Shown: positions 2,568 through 9,245, counted from the first letter of the stretch. The stretch is DNA of 64,000 bases from Candidatus Harrisonbacteria bacterium (GCA_023245035.1 JAHFLD010000001.1:83285-147284); one strand, 5' to 3'. A program made the numbers and translations. The notes: a model not told the origin generated them from the letters alone.

Positions 2568-4091
2568 CTATTTTGCGTATTCTACTGCCCGGGTCTCCCG
2601 AATAACATTAACCTTGATCTCGCCCGGATAGCGCAGCTCCGATTGAATTTTTCCGGCAATATTTTTGGCGAGCTGTAGCGCCCCAAAATCGTCAATTTTT
2701 TCCGGAACAACGAAGACGCGAATTTCCCGTCCGGCCGACAAGGCATAGGCGCTTTTAACTCCATCAAACGAGGTGGTGATTTTTTCCAAATCTTCTAGCC
2801 GTTTGATGTAATTTTCCACCGTATCTCGCCTGGCCCCCGGACGAGCGGCCGACAAGGCATCGGCGGCCGCGACTATAAACGACTCCGGCGTGGAGAAGGG
2901 ATAATCCTCATGATGCGACTCCATCGCCCGAATAACCGATTCCTCAATGTCGTATTTCTTCAAGATCTTGCGCCCCAAATCAACATGCGTACCTTCCACC
3001 TCGTGGCTAATAGCCTTGCCAATGTCGTGCAGTAAGGCGCCTTTTTTGGCGACCTCCACGTTCGCCCCAAGCTCGGCCGCCATCATGGCCGAGATATAGG
3101 CCATCTCCACCGAATGTACCAGCACATTCTGCCCATAGCTAGTACGGAAGTTGAGTCGTCCCAAGAGTTGCAGGATTTCTTTGGGTAAATTGATAATTCC
3201 CAAATCAGTGGCCGCCTGTTCGCCGATACTCTGCATTCGCTTTTGCATCTCTTGTTTTGATTCTTCAACTTTCTCCTCAATCTTCGCCGGCTGAATTCGC
3301 CCGTCTTTAATCAACTTCTCCAAGGTCATCTTGGCAATCTCGCGCCGTAGGGGATCAAACGAAGACAAAATCACATTCTCCGGCGAGTCATCAACAATCA
3401 CCTCAACGCCGGTCAAGCGTTCCAGGGTCTTAATGTTGCGCCCCTCTCGGCCGATAATCTTGCCCTTTAGCTCCTCGTTAGGCAGTTGAAAGACGCTAGT
3501 CGTCACATCGCTCACATGCGAGCGGGCATACCGCTGAACCGCGGTTGTAATAATCTCCAAGCTCTTTTTTTCAACCTCTTCGCGTCGGTCGTTCTCCAGT
3601 TTTTGAATGACCACCGCCAAATCATCGCGATGATGTTCCTCAATTTCTTTAACAATCCGCGCGCGCGCCTCTTCGCGTGTCAGTCCGGCTATTTTTTCAA
3701 CCTGCTGAAGCGCCTGAGCGTGTTGCGCCCTCGCCTCCTCGCTAAGACGAGCCAGTTTTTGGGCTTCATCTTCCAGTCTCCGCTCGCGCTCGGTCATGGA
3801 TCGCTGGTGAGCTTCCAGCGATTCATCTTTTTTAAGCAATCGCTCCTCAAGCTTTTCCAGTTGTGTCTTGCGCTCCCTCTCCTCGCGCTTAAATTCTTCC
3901 AATAGCAAAGCCGCCTTTTCTTTGGCTTCAATTAAAATCTCTTTGGACTGGTTCTTGGACTCCTCAACTTTAAGCTTTAGCGTCTGTTCTACCGAGTTCG
4001 CCTTTTGAGCGGCAAAAAACTGTCGAAAGGCATAGCCGATTGCAAAACCGATAACGGCAACGACCCCCGACACCAGCAGGGTTTGTGACAT
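2568..4091 (-). CDS. rny: ribonuclease Y (N-terminal membrane anchor, KH domain, HD domain)
   Basis: N-terminal TM helix, a long coiled-coil region, KH motif (GKIIGREGRNIKTLERLTGVEVIV) and HD domain (HSVEMAYISAMMAAELGANVEVAKKGALLHDIGKA). 507 aa. Confidence 0.9.
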   Translation of the reverse strand: MSQTLLVSGVVAVIGFAIGYAFRQFFAAQKANSVEQTLKLKVEESKNQSKEILIEAKEKAALLLEEFKREERERKTQLEKLEERLLKKDESLEAHQRSMTERERRLEDEAQKLARLSEEARAQHAQALQQVEKIAGLTREEARARIVKEIEEHHRDDLAVVIQKLENDRREEVEKKSLEIITTAVQRYARSHVSDVTTSVFQLPNEELKGKIIGREGRNIKTLERLTGVEVIVDDSPENVILSSFDPLRREIAKMTLEKLIKDGRIQPAKIEEKVEESKQEMQKRMQSIGEQAATDLGIINLPKEILQLLGRLNFRTSYGQNVLVHSVEMAYISAMMAAELGANVEVAKKGALLHDIGKAISHEVEGTHVDLGRKILKKYDIEESVIRAMESHHEDYPFSTPESFIVAAADALSAARPGARRDTVENYIKRLEDLEKITTSFDGVKSAYALSAGREIRVFVVPEKIDDFGALQLAKNIAGKIQSELRYPGEIKVNVIRETRAVEYAK

Positions 4092-4293
4092 ATAAAATTA
4101 TGTTCGCTAAATTCTTCATGATGAATTCTTTAGGAACCATGGAAGTATTTGGTAATCCCAACACCTTCACTATACCCCGTATGTCTCGAGTCCGCAAATA
4201 CGCCAAGCAACCGGCGATTCAGCTCAAACAGCTAGTCTCCACCAACCAGCGAGGACACATCTCTCCTCAAGAGGTTCTCGCAGGCGGAATGAG

Positions 4294-4590
4294 CTGGGTT
4301 TTTTGCACTTCCAACCGCGAGGACTCTTCTTTGTGCGGGGAGCTCTCGGAGCGCTTCGCAGCTTGGTATTCCGTCAGGAATTGCGAAGCGCGAGAGGAAG
4401 TGGTCGTTCTTCGCAGGAAAAGAACGAACCACAATCCCACTAACAGCGAGGACTCTTGGGTTTTGCAAAGCTCTCGCAACTCTAACTAGCTTGGCTTCCA
4501 GCTAATGCTGGAATAGTTAGAGTGAGAGGAAGTGGAGAAAATTCGCGGGAAATTTTCTACCACGGTTTGCAAAACCCAAGAGTCCGAGCC
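4294..4590. other. highly structured intergenic element (candidate ncRNA or cis-regulatory leader) between the recA stop and the rny start
   Basis: Nested inverted repeats: 4449-4465 pairs with 4568-4584, a 10-bp stem gcgcttcgca/tgcgaagcgc, and ctctaacta/tagttagag. A stem-loop motif is duplicated at 4391-4429 and 4523-4560, with compensatory stem changes (tcgttc/gaacga versus agaaaa/ttttct). Confidence 0.3.
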
Positions 4591-5651
4591 TACTTCGCTG
4601 CCGCCTCCGTCTTCTTCGCAATCTCGTGGAGCAACTTCTTATCTTCTTTTAGGGTGTTCTTGGCATTCTCCAATCCCACCCCCAACTTGTGCTCTTCAAA
4701 GTAATAAGTTAAACCGGTTTTGGAAACGACGTTATATTTCAAAGCGGTATTCACCACATCGGCCTCATAAGAAATTCCCTCGCCGTAGCTGATATCAAAT
4801 TCCGAAACTCTAAACGGCGCCGCCACCTTGTTTTTGACCACCTTGGCCTTGATTCTATTCCCAACAACCTCCTCGCCCTTCTTGATCTGGGCGATTCGCC
4901 GAATATCCACCCGCACCGATGAGTAAAATTTCAACGCCTGCCCGCCCGGAGTCGTTTCTGGATTGCCAAACATAACGCCAATTTTCATCCGGATTTGGTT
5001 AATAAAAATTATAAGCGTGTCGGTTTTAGCGGCGATTGCTGTCAGCTTGCGAAGTGCTTGCGACATCAGTCTGGCTTGCCGTCCAATGTGAAGATCGCCC
5101 ATATCACCCTCAATTTCTGCCTTGGGCGTCAGCGCCGCCACGGAATCCACCACGGCGATAGTTATCATTTCGGAGCGAACCAAACTTTCCAAAATGTTAA
5201 GCGCCTCCTCGCCATTGTCGGGTTGAGAAATAATCAGCTCCTTCACGTTGACTCCAAGTTTTTCGGCGTATTCTGGATCCAGCGCGTGTTCAGCGTCAAT
5301 AAAAGCCGCCTTGCCGCCTTTTTTCTGTGCCTGGGCGACGACATTCAGCGCCAAAGTTGTCTTGCCGGACGACTCTGGTCCATAAACCTCAACAATTCTT
5401 CCTCGCGGCAATCCACCAACCCCCAGCGCCAAATCGAGCGAAAAGGAGCCGGTAGAGATCGCGTCAACGTGAACCTTTTTCCAGTCACCGAGCTTCATCA
5501 CCGATCCCTCGCCAAACTTATCCTGCAAGCTCTCGAGTAGCTTATCTATATTCCTCGGGCCCGGCTGGTGAGCCTCTTTTTTCCCCAACGGCGCCCCGCC
5601 CTCATCAACCAACTCCTCCTCCTGTTCTCCACCAGAATTTTTCTTAGCCAT
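4590..5651 (-). CDS. recA: recombinase RecA
   Basis: Walker A ([12 protein letters not shown]), RecA core ([10 protein letters not shown] ... [38 protein letters not shown]); 353 aa. Confidence 0.95.
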
Positions 5652-5906
5652 AATATCTACAGTTTATTCCGCAAGCGCAATATCCGCCAGTACCCAGCTA
5701 GTTTACGAATTTTTTGCTCTTCCACCACCCAAGCGAGGAACATCTTCCCCTGAAACCATTACGGAGACGAGCGTGATTTTCTGCGAATGAATAGAACTTT
5801 TTGTCGGGGACACGCGAGCGGAGCGAGCAGGGTGACAAAAATTCGTAATAAATGAGCTAGAAAATAGCGAGTTGCAGTGGGTTGAAGGGAAGATGTTCTG
5901 AGCTCC

Positions 5907-6629
5907 CTATGGTTGTCCCCCAGACAACGGCAACGTCGTGGAAGCCCTGGTGTTTGGCCTTCTTGAACCGGACTGATCTTTTGGCTCCAAATTATCGGCC
6001 GGCTGATAAACCACCTGTCGAGTCATTCGCGTCTCCCGCCCCAAGATCTTAGTTGCCACAAACTCAATCGTATTCAAACCCGGCTCCAGCGTATAAGGAT
6101 AGGAAAATTCCCCTCGGGCATTAGTTGGCACCTCATCGCCCCCGATAATAATCTTGTCTCCGGCATTAATGGATCCCTGGATGACCAGCTCGCGCTCCGT
6201 AACCGTTGTTACCGGAAGCACCGGTACCGTAATCCGAAGCGTCGGCCGATTGAGAACTCTAAAAAGAAAAAAACCGAATACCAAAAGCGCCAAAGCTCCA
6301 CCGGCCGAAAAAAGTATCAGCCGTGGATTAGTGGAAGAAGTTAAGCGAAAACGATTGGAGGGTAAGACATCTTTGGCGCCGGAGGTGCGAAGCGACGTCT
6401 CCTGCCGGTAGGTCAGCATCACCTCATTGACGTCTAAATCAAGCGCCTGGGCGATTTTCATCAGGTAGCCGCGAATATAGGGAGCCGCCGGCAGCTTTTC
6501 CAAATCACCGCTTAAAATCGCCTCAATATGGCGTTCGGCGACACCGGTCTTTTGCGCCAGCCGCTCAAGATTAATCTCCCGCGACTGCAGGCGCTCCTCA
6601 AAAAACTTTTTAAGCGAATGATGTTCCAT
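5907..6629 (-). CDS. rodZ: RodZ-like cytoskeleton protein (N-terminal XRE-type HTH, one TM segment, C-terminal extracytoplasmic domain)
   Basis: The N-terminal HTH follows the RodZ pattern (LAQKTGVAERHIEAILSGDLEKLPAAPYIRGYLMKIAQALDLDVNEV). Single TM segment (LILFSAGGALALLVFGFFLF). Encoded next to ftsK. Confidence 0.6.
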   Translation of the reverse strand: MEHHSLKKFFEERLQSREINLERLAQKTGVAERHIEAILSGDLEKLPAAPYIRGYLMKIAQALDLDVNEVMLTYRQETSLRTSGAKDVLPSNRFRLTSSTNPRLILFSAGGALALLVFGFFLFRVLNRPTLRITVPVLPVTTVTERELVIQGSINAGDKIIIGGDEVPTNARGEFSYPYTLEPGLNTIEFVATKILGRETRMTRQVVYQPADNLEPKDQSGSRRPNTRASTTLPLSGGQP

Positions 6630-6632
6630 ACC

Positions 6633-8768
6633 TTATTCCAAGGCTTCTGGCGGGGCTTCGTAAACCTCGCGAGGCTTAGCTCCCTCTCCCGGGCCAACTA
6701 CGCCGCGCTCCTCCATGATGTCAATCAGCCTTGCCGCCCGAGCATAACCAACCTTGAGTCTTCTTTGCAATAGGGAGGCCGAAGCCTTCTTGGCTTCGCG
6801 GACCACCCCCACTGCCTCTTGATAGAGCTCATCGTCATCGTCGGCATCGCCACCAAACATGTCTTCCGGTTGCCTGATTAAGGCGTCTTGAAGGGGTTGG
6901 TTTTCCGTTTGCGTTCCCGCAGACGCGATCATGGCATCGGCCAACTCGTTGTTGTCGCGAATAAAATCAGTCACAGCGTGAATCTCTTCTTCCGAAACAT
7001 AGGATCCCTGAATGCGCTTCGGCTTGGAATAATCGGAAGAAATAAACAACAAATCTCCGCCGCCCAACAGTTTTTCCGCGCCGGCCAAATCAAGAATGGT
7101 GCGGGAATCAATTTGACTGGCGACCTGCAAGGCGATTCGCGCGGTAATGTTGGCTTTAATTAATCCGGTGATGACCTCCACCGACGGCCGCTGGGTAGAA
7201 AGAATCAAATGAATGCCGGTCGCCCGCGCCATCTGCGCCAGGCGCACAATTGAGCCTTCTATCTCCCTCCCATAGCTCGCCATCAAATCAGCCAGTTCAT
7301 CCACCACGATAACTATGTAAGGCAGCGGCTCATCGCTTTGCTTGTTAAAACTTTTTATATCGCGGACTCCGGCTCTAAGCAGAACCTCATACCGCCGCTC
7401 CATTTCTTTAATCGCCCAACGAAAGGCGCCGACAGTTTTCTTGGCCTCGGTAATGACCGGAGCCACCAAGTGCGGTATGTGCTCGTAAATCGAAAGCTCC
7501 ACGCGCTTCGGATCAATCAAGAGCAGACGCAAAGTATCCGGAGCGTTCTTGAAAAGCAGGGACAAGATCAGGGTATGGATCGCCACACTCTTACCACTGC
7601 CGGTGGATCCGGCGATAAGCAAATGAGGCATCTTTTCGATATTGCTAAAAATCGGCTCGCCGGTTACGTCGCGCCCCAAGGCAAAGGTCAGCGGCCCGGC
7701 AATGCCAAAATCCTTGTAGGCCATAATACTTCCCAAACGCACTATTGCCGCCGCCTTATTGGGCACCTCAATTCCCACCAGCGCTTTGCCTGGAATCGGC
7801 GCCTCAATGCGAATCGGATGCGCGGCGAGCGCCAACTCAAAGTCGCGCTGAAGAGCGATGATCTTGGTCAACTTAACCCCCTCGGCTGGTTTTAAAGTGT
7901 AGCGCGTTACCTTGGGGCCAATGTTGATCTCGCCCATTTCAACTGGAATCCCAAAACTTTCCAGGGTCCGCTTGATTATGTTGGCGTTGGCGCGCAGATC
8001 GCCGGAAGTTGGTTTTTCAATCTGCGAAGTTAAGAGTGATAGGGGAGGCGGCACGTAATTTTTGCTGGAAATCGGGCGGGGCAAGGTTCGAGCGATTTCC
8101 CCGGCTGTGTTCTCCTTAACCTCCATCTCATCCGGCTCCTCGTCTTTTTTGTTTTCCTTGATCTTGATCTTGGTTACTGGTTCAGGGTTTGGCTCTTCGG
8201 CCTCCGAGTCGTCGTCGCGGTCGCCATCTCCGGCCTCGTGGATAATCAGCGCTTTTTCTTTTGGTTTTCGTTCACTGCCAAAACGGAGCGGCGTATTGAA
8301 AGCGATGAGCAGAGATATCAACAGCAGAAGACTCAAAATAATAATTGAGGCCAAATAGCCAAAAAGCGCCTCAATGGATCCGATGGCTTGCCCCAAAATC
8401 CCCCCCTTGTCCGGAAAAAGCACATCGATCAGCCCCAGTCCGGCAATCACAAAAAATCCGGCCCCAAACAAACTCATGCCCAAGATTTTTCGCTCGTGGC
8501 TAAAGAGCAAAAAGAAGGCCACCAAAAAAGCTATGAAAGGAATCAGGTAATATCCCAAACCCAAGAGGGTCGAAAGAACGGTAAAGACAAAATTACCCGC
8601 CGGACCGGATCGGCCAACGCTTGCCAATACCAAAACGATGGAGACTCCAAAGAGCAAAACAGCCACGATACTCTTCTTGGTCTCGGGGCTCACGCGGTGC
8701 CGTGTTTCAACGCGCCCCCCCGGGCGCTCCTTTTTTTTCTTCTTGCCGCCAAAAGAAATTCCAAACAT
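6633..8768 (-). CDS. ftsK: DNA translocase FtsK/SpoIIIE
   Basis: N-terminal polytopic membrane domain, an acidic linker, the FtsK motor with Walker A (GSTGSGKSVAIHTLILSL) and Walker B (IVIVVDELADL), and a C-terminal gamma winged-helix domain. 711 aa. Confidence 0.9.
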   Translation of the reverse strand: MFGISFGGKKKKKERPGGRVETRHRVSPETKKSIVAVLLFGVSIVLVLASVGRSGPAGNFVFTVLSTLLGLGYYLIPFIAFLVAFFLLFSHERKILGMSLFGAGFFVIAGLGLIDVLFPDKGGILGQAIGSIEALFGYLASIIILSLLLLISLLIAFNTPLRFGSERKPKEKALIIHEAGDGDRDDDSEAEEPNPEPVTKIKIKENKKDEEPDEMEVKENTAGEIARTLPRPISSKNYVPPPLSLLTSQIEKPTSGDLRANANIIKRTLESFGIPVEMGEINIGPKVTRYTLKPAEGVKLTKIIALQRDFELALAAHPIRIEAPIPGKALVGIEVPNKAAAIVRLGSIMAYKDFGIAGPLTFALGRDVTGEPIFSNIEKMPHLLIAGSTGSGKSVAIHTLILSLLFKNAPDTLRLLLIDPKRVELSIYEHIPHLVAPVITEAKKTVGAFRWAIKEMERRYEVLLRAGVRDIKSFNKQSDEPLPYIVIVVDELADLMASYGREIEGSIVRLAQMARATGIHLILSTQRPSVEVITGLIKANITARIALQVASQIDSRTILDLAGAEKLLGGGDLLFISSDYSKPKRIQGSYVSEEEIHAVTDFIRDNNELADAMIASAGTQTENQPLQDALIRQPEDMFGGDADDDDELYQEAVGVVREAKKASASLLQRRLKVGYARAARLIDIMEERGVVGPGEGAKPREVYEAPPEALE

Positions 8769-8819
8769 ACGTGTTCATTATAATACCGCACTCCGGCGCA
8801 TTGTAGTACCATAAAAGCA

Positions 8820-9245
8820 ATGAGGAAAAAGAATCAGCCATCCATAAAGGCCCCAGCGGCAAAAATCTTTGGCGCCTACGACATCCGTGGCCGCTATCCA
8901 CGGGACATTAATTTGTCGGCGGTTGCGGTAATCGCGCGGGCCTTAAGCCGCGACTGGCGGGGCCAGACAGTCGTGCTGGGGCGCGACATCCGTCACGGCT
9001 CCGTAGAAATTTCTTCTGGTATTAAGTCCGAGCTTGAATCTGGCGGGGTCATGGTGATTGACGGCGGGTTAATGACCACTCCAATGCTCTATTTTCTCGT
9101 CTGCGAGACCAAGGCCTCTGGCGGGATCATGGTGACCGCCTCGCATAATCCAAAAAATTGGAACGGATTGAAGATGGTCGGATCAGGCGCTATTCCAATC
9201 CGCGGCGAGGAGGTTTATCAAAAAGTTAAAAAACTTGAGTCATGA
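8820..9245 (+). CDS. phosphomannomutase/phosphoglucomutase, N-terminal fragment (domain I with the catalytic Ser loop)
   Basis: Active-site loop TASHNPKNWNGLK. 141 aa, ends at a TGA that overlaps the ATG of the next ORF. See the fragment at 9242..10123. Confidence 0.7.
   Translation: MRKKNQPSIKAPAAKIFGAYDIRGRYPRDINLSAVAVIARALSRDWRGQTVVLGRDIRHGSVEISSGIKSELESGGVMVIDGGLMTTPMLYFLVCETKASGGIMVTASHNPKNWNGLKMVGSGAIPIRGEEVYQKVKKLES

Follow-up and report, generated by a model that had tools for sequence, protein, structure and literature searches.

The bacterial MITEs, among them Correia/CREE, ERIC, BOX, RUP, and SPRITE, are small, non-autonomous, intergenic, and clustered, with some inserted in tandem or nested within one another, and BOX displays a modular A-B(n)-C arrangement (PMC10969869). 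Their terminal inverted repeats give rise to long duplexes, and some of them affect the processing or the stability of mRNA (PMC10969869). The Rickettsia palindromic elements (RPEs) are non-coding palindromic repeats of ∼100-150 bp in a reduced genome, where they occupy the spaces between genes, the RNA genes, and, in frame, open reading frames (PMC10969869). Those inserted into housekeeping ORFs are read through, and no transposase is known for them (PMC10969869). With regard to the CPR, PMC11270868 and PMC13011429, which treat insertions in rRNA genes and introns in tRNA genes, are concerned with group I introns and homing endonucleases.

Described here is the spacer between recA and rny in Candidatus Harrisonbacteria bacterium, which is contained within a 64,000-nt stretch of DNA hereafter referred to as the window. 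According to the original prediction this gap of ∼500 nt was not an ordinary spacer. Indeed, it measures 498 nt, and the region folds far better than shuffled controls (z = -9.0 and -8.3 on the two strands). On balance we favor the interpretation that 4245-4589 is a decaying tandem array of a ∼135-150-nt structured repeat, widespread in Patescibacteria (CPR bacteria of the Paceibacteria type), of the non-autonomous, selfish kind represented by MITEs and RPEs. A search of full-text literature revealed no description of such an element in CPR. Rfam 15 likewise gave no match.

Architecture of the array

The genes encoding FtsK, an HTH_25 protein, RecA, RNase Y, and HU all lie on the minus strand of the window (Pfam). 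The closest relatives of its RecA and RNase Y are found in metagenome-assembled genomes of Patescibacteria/Paceibacterota, and a tRNA/tmRNA scan of the whole 64 kb revealed no tRNA or tmRNA genes. When read on the recA strand, 4245-4589 contains three units: one is complete (B), one is without its 5' arm (A), and one is a remnant (C). Each complete unit is a three-way junction, with arms P2 and P3, inside a closing helix, P1. The features are as follows, where R1 is the covariance model described below.

5727-5893, minus strand: second element with similar termini and a different interior, between the stop of the HTH_25 gene (5907-5909) and recA
4590-5651, minus strand: recA coding sequence, 353 aa (PF00154, 3e-132)
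4590-4592, minus strand: recA stop codon TAG, separated by 4 nt from the closing stem of unit B, the first unit
4446-4589, minus strand: unit B, complete element, from the fold and from R1
4589-4586, minus strand: unit B, 5' end GCUC
4585-4566, minus strand: unit B, 5' arm of P1
4563-4532, minus strand: unit B, P2 hairpin, loop UCCCGCG at 4550-4544, followed by junction UUC
4528-4524 and 4475-4471, minus strand: unit B, outer pairs of P3, CUCUC with GAGAG
4523-4514 and 4488-4479, minus strand: unit B, 10-bp stem of P3
4513-4496 and 4495-4489, minus strand: unit B, inner hairpin of P3 and bulge GCCAAGC
4469-4450, minus strand: unit B, 3' arm of P1
4449-4446, minus strand: unit B, UCGC, the start of tail UCGCUGUUAGUGG
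4308-4445, minus strand: unit A, 5' arm of P1 missing (R1 92 bits, model positions 34-137 only)
4445-4433, minus strand: rest of the unit B tail, at the start of unit A
4432-4400, minus strand: unit A, P2, loop UUCCUGCG at 4419-4412
4396-4392 and 4347-4343, minus strand: unit A, CUCUC and GAGAG
4391-4382 and 4360-4351, minus strand: unit A, 10-bp stem of P3
4381-4361, minus strand: unit A, inner hairpin and bulge ACCAAGC
4340-4321, minus strand: unit A, orphan 3' arm of P1
4320-4308, minus strand: unit A, tail UCGCGGUUGGAAG
4245-4312, minus strand: unit C, remnant with 3'-end features alone (UGCAAAAAACCCAG; CCUGCGAGAAC; GAGGAGAG; AUGUGUCCUCGCUGGUUGGUGG)
4092-4215, minus strand: region upstream of rny, kept in the sister genome L081 (∼88% identity), containing GGGGTATAGT and a palindrome at 4110-4136
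2568-4091, minus strand: rny (RNase Y) coding sequence (Pfam)

All of the features listed in the original prediction were located, offset by 1-4 nt. The long-range inverted repeat, which had been placed at 4449-4465/4568-4584, is real and forms the closing stem, with 20 of 20 bp paired between 4450-4469 and 4566-4585; its sequence has no second occurrence in the 64 kb. It does adjoin the recA stop codon, albeit at a distance of 4 nt rather than 6 nt. The two shorter stems that had been noted, gcgcttcgca...tgcgaagcgc and ctctaacta...tagttagag, are both perfect over 10 bp, the first at 4351-4360/4382-4391 and the second, as actctaacta/tagttagagt, at 4479-4488/4514-4523. The ∼38-nt motif, GAGAGGAAGTGG-(stem)-TTCGCRGGAAA-(stem')-ACCAC, is indeed present twice, at 4392-4432 and 4524-4563. 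Its inner stems are different but complementary in the two copies, as had been claimed, with TCGTTCTT/AAGAACGA in one and AGAAAATT/AATTTTCT in the other, and GAGAGGAAGTGG occurs in the window at these two sites only, versus 0.13 expected. The duplication is larger than the motif, however, and encompasses the whole unit of ∼130 nt, as indicated by direct-repeat families D1-D4 with a spacing of 128-132 nt. A third, degenerate unit carries the feature beyond the predicted 4294-4590, to 4245.

Unit B folds with an energy of -73.6 kcal/mol on the recA strand (z = -11.7) and -78.0 kcal/mol on the plus strand (z = -10.2). Its match to R1 scores 118 bits with an E-value of 2e-31, unit B being among the 92 training sequences. 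The corresponding energies for unit A are -51.9 and -55.5 kcal/mol, respectively. The fold of unit C is no better than those of shuffled sequences (z = -1.6 / -0.6).

The region upstream of rny at 4092-4215 is not part of the repeat element. An overlapping palindrome within it, AATTCTTCATGATGAATTC..., at 4110-4136, lies ∼20-45 nt 5' of the rny start codon, is common to L081, and may serve rny as an operator or as a hairpin in its 5' UTR. Public gene calling of the window's own contig (L088) places a 123-aa antisense ORF, without a Pfam match, across the array (4163-4534 in L088 coordinates). This is most likely a spurious call from a stop-poor repeat. The second element, at 5727-5893, begins with GAGCUCA-GAACAUCUUCCC and ends with GGGGAAGAUGUUC-CUCGC-UUGGGUGGUGG (the 3' end is also given as UUGGGUGG). 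It is not detected by R1, and it is absent from L081, where the spacer is 66 nt. A fragment of its interior, ∼80% similar by eye, is found in contig L116 at ∼4375-4450.

The repeat family

A search pattern, TCCNGCG-N12-20-CCTCTC-N20-40-CCAANC-N13-GAGAG, was derived from three units in two genomes, namely the window and its sister L081. It matched at least 120 loci in metagenome contigs, mostly from groundwater and sediment, with ∼10 chance matches estimated; ∼12 of the 120 loci listed look like chance matches. The Hainich groundwater wells (H41/H43/H51) are the source of many copies. The core pattern had no matches in viral contigs. Regular expressions for shorter motifs were too noisy for use.

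The consensus of the remaining loci is aCCGCGGUUc-(stem)-UCCAGCG-(stem')-CCCGCUG-CCUCUC-GGC(stem)-(hairpin)-ACCAAGC-(stem')GCC-UCC-GAGAG-CUUC, and the unit size in the family is ∼135-150 nt. P1 comprises ∼17-20 bp of free sequence, and its arms vary between copies. P2, which has GUGG/CCAC on either side, is a hairpin whose loop, UCCNGCG, is conserved, and it is followed by the short junction UUC. P3 is formed by the conserved CUCUC/GAGAG pairs, a 10-bp stem of free sequence, a variable terminal hairpin, and the conserved 3' bulge RCCAAKC. Many copies, including the units of the window, have short conserved ends, with GCUC(C/G) at the 5' end and YC(C/U)CGC at the 3' end, followed 0-4 nt later by UUGG. 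The tail after the 3' arm of P1 reads ...GUCCUCGC-N-GUUGG. Pairing of the P2 loop (CCNGCG) with the tail (CGUUGG) to form a pseudoknot was considered and rejected. Although many copies show the required complementarity, only ∼35-40% of copies possess the tail, with which the variable base of the loop shows no covariation.

Ninety-two distinct copies were aligned with MAFFT, and the structure obtained from this alignment with RNAalifold is the three-way junction. Double compensatory changes occur in 42 of the 48 base pairs, and all P1 pairs covary. Paired cells amount to 90.9% in the alignment versus 61.4% in shuffles. The covariation score, 0.741 versus 0.190, was reached by none of 500 shuffles, and shifted-pairing controls were 47% paired at most. 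Single changes from G-C to G-U are rare, at 0-4 per pair, beside dozens of double changes.

Within the window, R1 detects units A and B only, both of which belong to its training set. It gave 110 matches in 100 of the metagenome loci listed, on both strands and with up to five per contig. Four further matches were found in 713 kb of unselected recA neighborhoods; L004, L005, and L044 are of Patescibacteria type by phylum-level label or RecA grouping, and L006 is labeled only "bacterium." The Proteobacteria, Bacillota, and Actinomycetota loci in those 713 kb gave no R1 match. In unselected Patescibacteria loci the density is ∼1 copy per 100-150 kb.

The original prediction could not match the element by eye to RNase P, tmRNA, SRP, or 6S, and Rfam 15 likewise produced no match at the gathering threshold in the whole window. 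For the region 3900-4800 at E ≤ 10 it returned noise alone, at 15-19 bits. In 18 loci with consensus-like copies it recognized rRNA, tRNA, 5S, and one group I intron, none of which overlaps the element, and in L133 the best match at E ≤ 10 was U4 at 18 bits.

Location of the copies

In many copies the element starts at the stop of a co-directional gene or overlaps it (TAG followed by CTCCAGTTTTC...). Considering only ORFs of at least 150 aa, a co-directional stop is located within 15 nt of P1 in 15 copies, with 5 nt the commonest distance, and the stop of a convergent gene lies 21-35 nt past the 3' end of the element in five. Other copies follow tRNA genes (L101, L159) or lie in the 23S-5S spacer, for example in L113 and L130 (Rfam) and, with 23S-like 5' flanks, in L138, L144, and L186. 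Still others are positioned inside the 16S rRNA immediately behind GGAUUAGA, a site that in L105 is closely followed by a group I intron; the 16S copies would be removed together with the intron. Orientation is biased toward the sense of the neighboring genes, as in eight of eight copies in rRNA operons and as in the 15 copies that adjoin a stop at their 5' end versus 5 at their 3' end. DnaA-box-like sequences, TGTGGATAAG, occur directly 5' of the copies in L179 (∼1530-1545) and L193 (∼925-935), which suggests that some copies reside in origin-proximal intergenic regions.

Three copies (L208, L098, L119) are inserted in mnmA between the segments encoding ATGHY and KDQSYFL, all of them in frame and free of stops, and one mnmA insertion amounts to 118 codons, with a second element nested in it. 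This argues for read-through into protein rather than splicing. Selection for translatability in all copies was rejected, as open frames are common on both strands (84% versus 76%; 53% when shuffled). Given this, and given that copy lengths are evenly spread modulo 3, read-through is special to the intragenic copies.

The 150 ORFs nearest to the copies are housekeeping genes (SecY, MnmA, tRNA synthetases, MurB, and others). Among the commonest 25 of the 169 families that they matched there is no transposase, integrase, or reverse transcriptase (RT), nor is there a Y1/RAYT domain.

Relationships among the copies

Copies sharing a contig are typically 50-60% identical, the median for the family being 51%; one exception is an inverted pair in L156 that is 99% identical. 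There are a few near-identical copies with unrelated flanks, namely those of L097 and L125 (100%) and that of L133 versus those of L115 and L192 (94%). Many copies sit at contig ends, as is usual for repeats.

The P3 hairpins form discrete classes that recur in otherwise different copies. The copies behind secY in L134 and L118 have P1 and P2 in common and wholly different P3 hairpins. In L116, an array behind an unrelated 479-aa gene contains one unit with the P3 of unit A of the window and another with the P2 of unit B. These observations indicate that much of the "covariation" reflects the exchange of whole hairpin modules among copies, in agreement with the scarcity of single changes from G-C to G-U. 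The covariation noted between the two motif copies of the window has the same explanation, because paralogous units of a repeat family exchange hairpins as blocks. It had been taken as the mark of a selected structure, and to the extent that the fold is conserved in a single-stranded nucleic acid this is upheld; it is not, however, a case of stepwise compensation at this locus.

Arrays often open with a complete unit, after which come partial ones that retain the 3' end, as in the window, L116, L133, L176, L180, and L184. This trend toward 5' truncation was seen in arrays inspected individually, a motif count of orphan half-units being too noisy. A direct TC or CTC(G) repeat flanks P1 in approximately half of 89 copies, and CTCG flanks unit B. 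Since it recurs at independent sites, this repeat may be part of the element. Neither a clear target-site duplication nor a conserved terminal inverted-repeat sequence was found in the copies compared.

In L156 (148-1089), L183, L166, L120, and L205, four to five copies are packed into ∼1 kb with no long ORFs and are flanked by purine-rich low-complexity sequence, gaagaagaagaaaagg.... Another structured element of ∼150 nt, UCCCGCAACU...GAUCCCG..UAUCUCCGA...UCGGAGAU.UGCGGGA, lies inside the 3' arm of P1 in some copies and probably represents a repeat family of its own. The one in L098 is read through, together with the main element, as part of the mnmA frame. Its locations are as follows.

L098, ∼4540-4700: nested ∼150-nt element
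L204, ∼2620-2800, minus strand: nested ∼150-nt element
L134: nested ∼150-nt element

The locus in related genomes

The sister genome L081 shares the gene order of the window, its RNase Y and RecA being 94% and 92% identical, respectively, and 1080 nt separate its recA and rny. Directly behind the recA stop is one unit with the same architecture and very different stem sequences, and this unit is nested between the two ends of another; the window has ∼2.5 units at this place. Upstream of rny, the final ∼125 nt can be aligned with the window, but the element region cannot. In relatives whose RecA is 76-80% identical, the spacers before and after recA measure 33-39 nt and 56-86 nt, respectively, and contain no element; none is present behind recA in L090 or L092. 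At 80 recA loci of GTDB species, nhmmer and blastn revealed nothing similar by sequence. Homologues of rny at 71-72% identity have different upstream genes and no element. This pattern of presence and absence indicates that the feature is not tied to rny and that turnover at recA is rapid. A dedicated stabilizer of recA, as had been suggested, is not in keeping with relatives that lack the element behind that gene.

Between the element and rny, L081 contains an antisense 180-aa ORF (3220-3762) without a Pfam match and a perfect 13-bp hairpin (3188-3215) that is followed by a T-run on its strand. Together these constitute an indel between two genomes with a RecA identity of 92%. L081 also encodes a 303-aa RT (8100-9011; RVT_1, 2e-15) beside a sigma-70 gene. 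By synteny its position is just past the left end of the window, ∼5 kb from the element. Neither the window nor any of the 120 listed loci with the element yielded a homologue of this RT.

Strand asymmetry

On the gene-sense strand, A.C and C.A oppositions outnumber G.U and U.G pairs by 166 to 79, and the excess is observed in all three helices. In the P3 stem as defined by its anchors, the counts are 27 A.C versus 15 G.U. With RNA parameters, 67 of 80 non-redundant copies have the lower minimum free energy on the antisense strand, by a mean of 5.3 kcal/mol (p = 2e-10), and with DNA parameters the antisense strand folds better in 68 of 80. Units A and B of the window also fold better on the plus strand. 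GNA triloops are found in 15 of 51 cases on the antisense strand and in 1 of 48 on the sense strand. In hairpins of DNA, triloops of the form C-GNA-G are particularly stable. The sense strand of the element is C-rich (GC skew -0.14), and its flanks are G-rich (+0.05 to +0.07). Taken with the impossibility of a conserved upstream promoter, the strand bias points to single-stranded antisense DNA and not to a 3' UTR of recA. The species that is recognized would thus be single-stranded DNA antisense to the neighboring genes, which is the plus strand in the window. The caveat in the original prediction that the structure could be "RNA or DNA cruciform" was apt.

Discussion

The element seems to behave like the MITEs and, above all, like the RPEs. 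The parallel with the latter is functional only, in that in-frame, stop-free insertions are met in mnmA. The element is not known to resemble the RPEs in sequence. The host phylum is another one, and a three-way junction, its loops conserved, takes the place of a simple hairpin. In addition, identity within a genome is ∼50%, the stems are exchangeable, and most copies abut stop codons instead of lying inside ORFs. With the MITEs the element shares arrays and nesting, small size (under ∼500 bp), absence of coding capacity, and multiple copies, with two to five on some contigs. It differs from them in that the P1 arms are not conserved in sequence among copies, no parental IS is present among the neighbor families listed, copy number is low (∼1 per 100-150 kb), and divergence is high; the direct repeat beside P1 is not a clear target-site duplication.

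A conserved fold with free sequence is also a property of single-stranded DNA sites recognized by structure, such as integron attC sites, the ends of IS200/IS605, and REP/RAYT. The bottom strand of attC, which is antisense to the gene, folds best, and the antisense strand of the element offers a parallel. Like attC, the element follows or overlaps the stop of a co-directional gene, and GTTGG in its tail resembles GTTRRRY. In attC, which belongs to cassette arrays beside intI, the core sites R'' (RYYYAAC) and R' (GTTRRRY) pair at the foot of a bulged hairpin. The element was nonetheless rejected as an attC site: its 5' end is GCUCC/GCUCG rather than RYYYAAC, no more than ∼35-40% of copies have GTTGG, and in place of the bulged hairpin there is a three-way junction. 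Copies are also located in rRNA and inside ORFs, and the families listed for the 150 neighbors include no integrase, Y1 transposase, or RAYT. REP/BIME sequences themselves were rejected: they are imperfect palindromes of 20-40 nt with 5' GTAG, hundreds of copies, and a RAYT, whereas the element is ∼140 nt, branched, and present in few copies. In a retron msr-msd, the inverted repeats a1/a2 surround a short conserved and a long variable hairpin much as P1 does, and the folded product would be a DNA copy antisense to the transcript. Retrons are single-copy beside an RT, however, and the element is flanked by recA and rny, with no RT in the window or the 120 loci listed and no match to an Rfam retron family; this candidate was likewise rejected.

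On the mobile-repeat interpretation that we favor, the element would persist at sites of low harm, namely behind stop codons, behind tRNA and 23S genes, beside the 16S intron, and in frame in mnmA. Hairpins would be swapped between copies as whole modules, and the conserved junction and loops would presumably be recognized on a single strand by a putative trans-acting enzyme. Both the mobility and the selfishness of the repeat are inferred. At recA the element would merely be carried in the 3' region, with at most a side effect on the stability of the 3' end of the recA mRNA. Several observations temper this interpretation. Copies on one contig are 50-60% identical, as is the family at its median, so that recent transposition must be rare, which counts against a mobile element. 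Copies at orthologous sites (behind secY, in mnmA, 16S, and the 23S-5S spacer) keep their fold in hosts whose proteins are roughly two-thirds identical. This looks like purifying selection per site, unlike what a purely selfish, immobile relic would display. Finally, the sense-biased orientation fits a role at the RNA level as well as one at the DNA level.

The main rival, which we nevertheless regard as unlikely, is a cis-acting RNA module that serves the host and is transcribed as the 3'-terminal part of an upstream gene, tRNA, or rRNA. Such a module could act as a barrier to 3'-exonucleases, as a site for processing by RNase III or another enzyme, or as a terminator of an unconventional type, effects of which REP, ERIC, and Correia elements are capable. 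The 5' end of the element abuts stop codons at a fixed distance, its orientation matches that of tRNA and rRNA genes, the fold is kept at orthologous sites in diverged genomes, and P1 is a long perfect duplex of the kind that RNase III cuts (for comparison, see PMC10969869). It is at odds, however, with an antisense strand that is G-rich and folds better and with a sense strand on which A.C outnumbers G.U. An intrinsic terminator was rejected: a scan of 3900-6000 called none behind recA, and P1 is followed by UCGC... and not by a U-tract. Furthermore, the copies in the mnmA frame and by the 16S intron could not terminate or cleave harmlessly, and relatives do without the element behind recA.

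Less likely still is a SINE-like, non-autonomous CPR retroelement or, in a weaker form, any structure-guided mobile element of single-stranded DNA with a new enzyme. Having no promoter, the element would depend for its transcription on read-through out of the gene before it, and this would account for its sense orientation; a trans-encoded RT would copy the transcript. The antisense single-stranded cDNA would then fold into the three-way junction and be the integrating species. Such a scheme would explain the antisense G.T pairs and GNA triloops, the arrays that keep the 3' end, and the nested insertions.

Independent small RNA genes, expressed from the better-folding strand (plus in the window, antisense to recA and rny) with a functional three-way junction, are improbable. 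They would account for the greater stability of the antisense strand in 67 of 80 copies, for its G-richness, which is typical of structured RNAs, and for the window units, whose plus strands are the more stable (unit B, -78.0 versus -73.6 kcal/mol; unit A, -55.5 versus -51.9 kcal/mol). A conserved upstream promoter is impossible, however, because the flanks are unrelated and P1 reaches the ends of the conserved part, and no promoter-like site faces the element in the window. Moreover, antisense genes within 16S rRNA and mnmA are implausible, and G.U intermediates are rare for an RNA. A small RNA gene specific to this spacer, as the original prediction entertained, finds no support, given the occurrence of the same fold in more than 100 unrelated contexts.

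The remaining proposal, a structured 5' leader, riboregulator, or riboswitch of rny or a tandem riboswitch pair, takes its appeal from two tandem structured domains upstream of rny on the same strand but is refuted by the comparative data, as the position is not conserved in the 5' UTR across relatives, L081 (Rny 94% identical) has the antisense 180-aa ORF and terminator-like hairpin between element and gene, the rny-proximal 125 nt are conserved where the element region cannot be aligned, the 71-72% identical homologues lack the element and are preceded by different genes, the motif recurs in >100 unrelated contexts, and no Rfam riboswitch matches.

The genomes of CPR/Patescibacteria are among the most reduced known, yet they contain many introns and insertions in essential genes. 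For annotation, the repeat accounts for long "empty" intergenic gaps, contig breaks, and spurious ORFs in CPR assemblies, such as the 123-aa ORF, and it should be masked in screens for riboswitches and small RNAs. The question that it poses is which enzyme reads a junction with free stems and fixed loops, UCCNGCG and RCCAAKC, and whether it does so on RNA or on single-stranded DNA. To the picture of CPR genomes it adds a non-coding repeat defined by structure, with well over 100 members and unusually strong covariation, that enters rRNA operons, the flanks of tRNA genes, the ends of genes, and even a reading frame.
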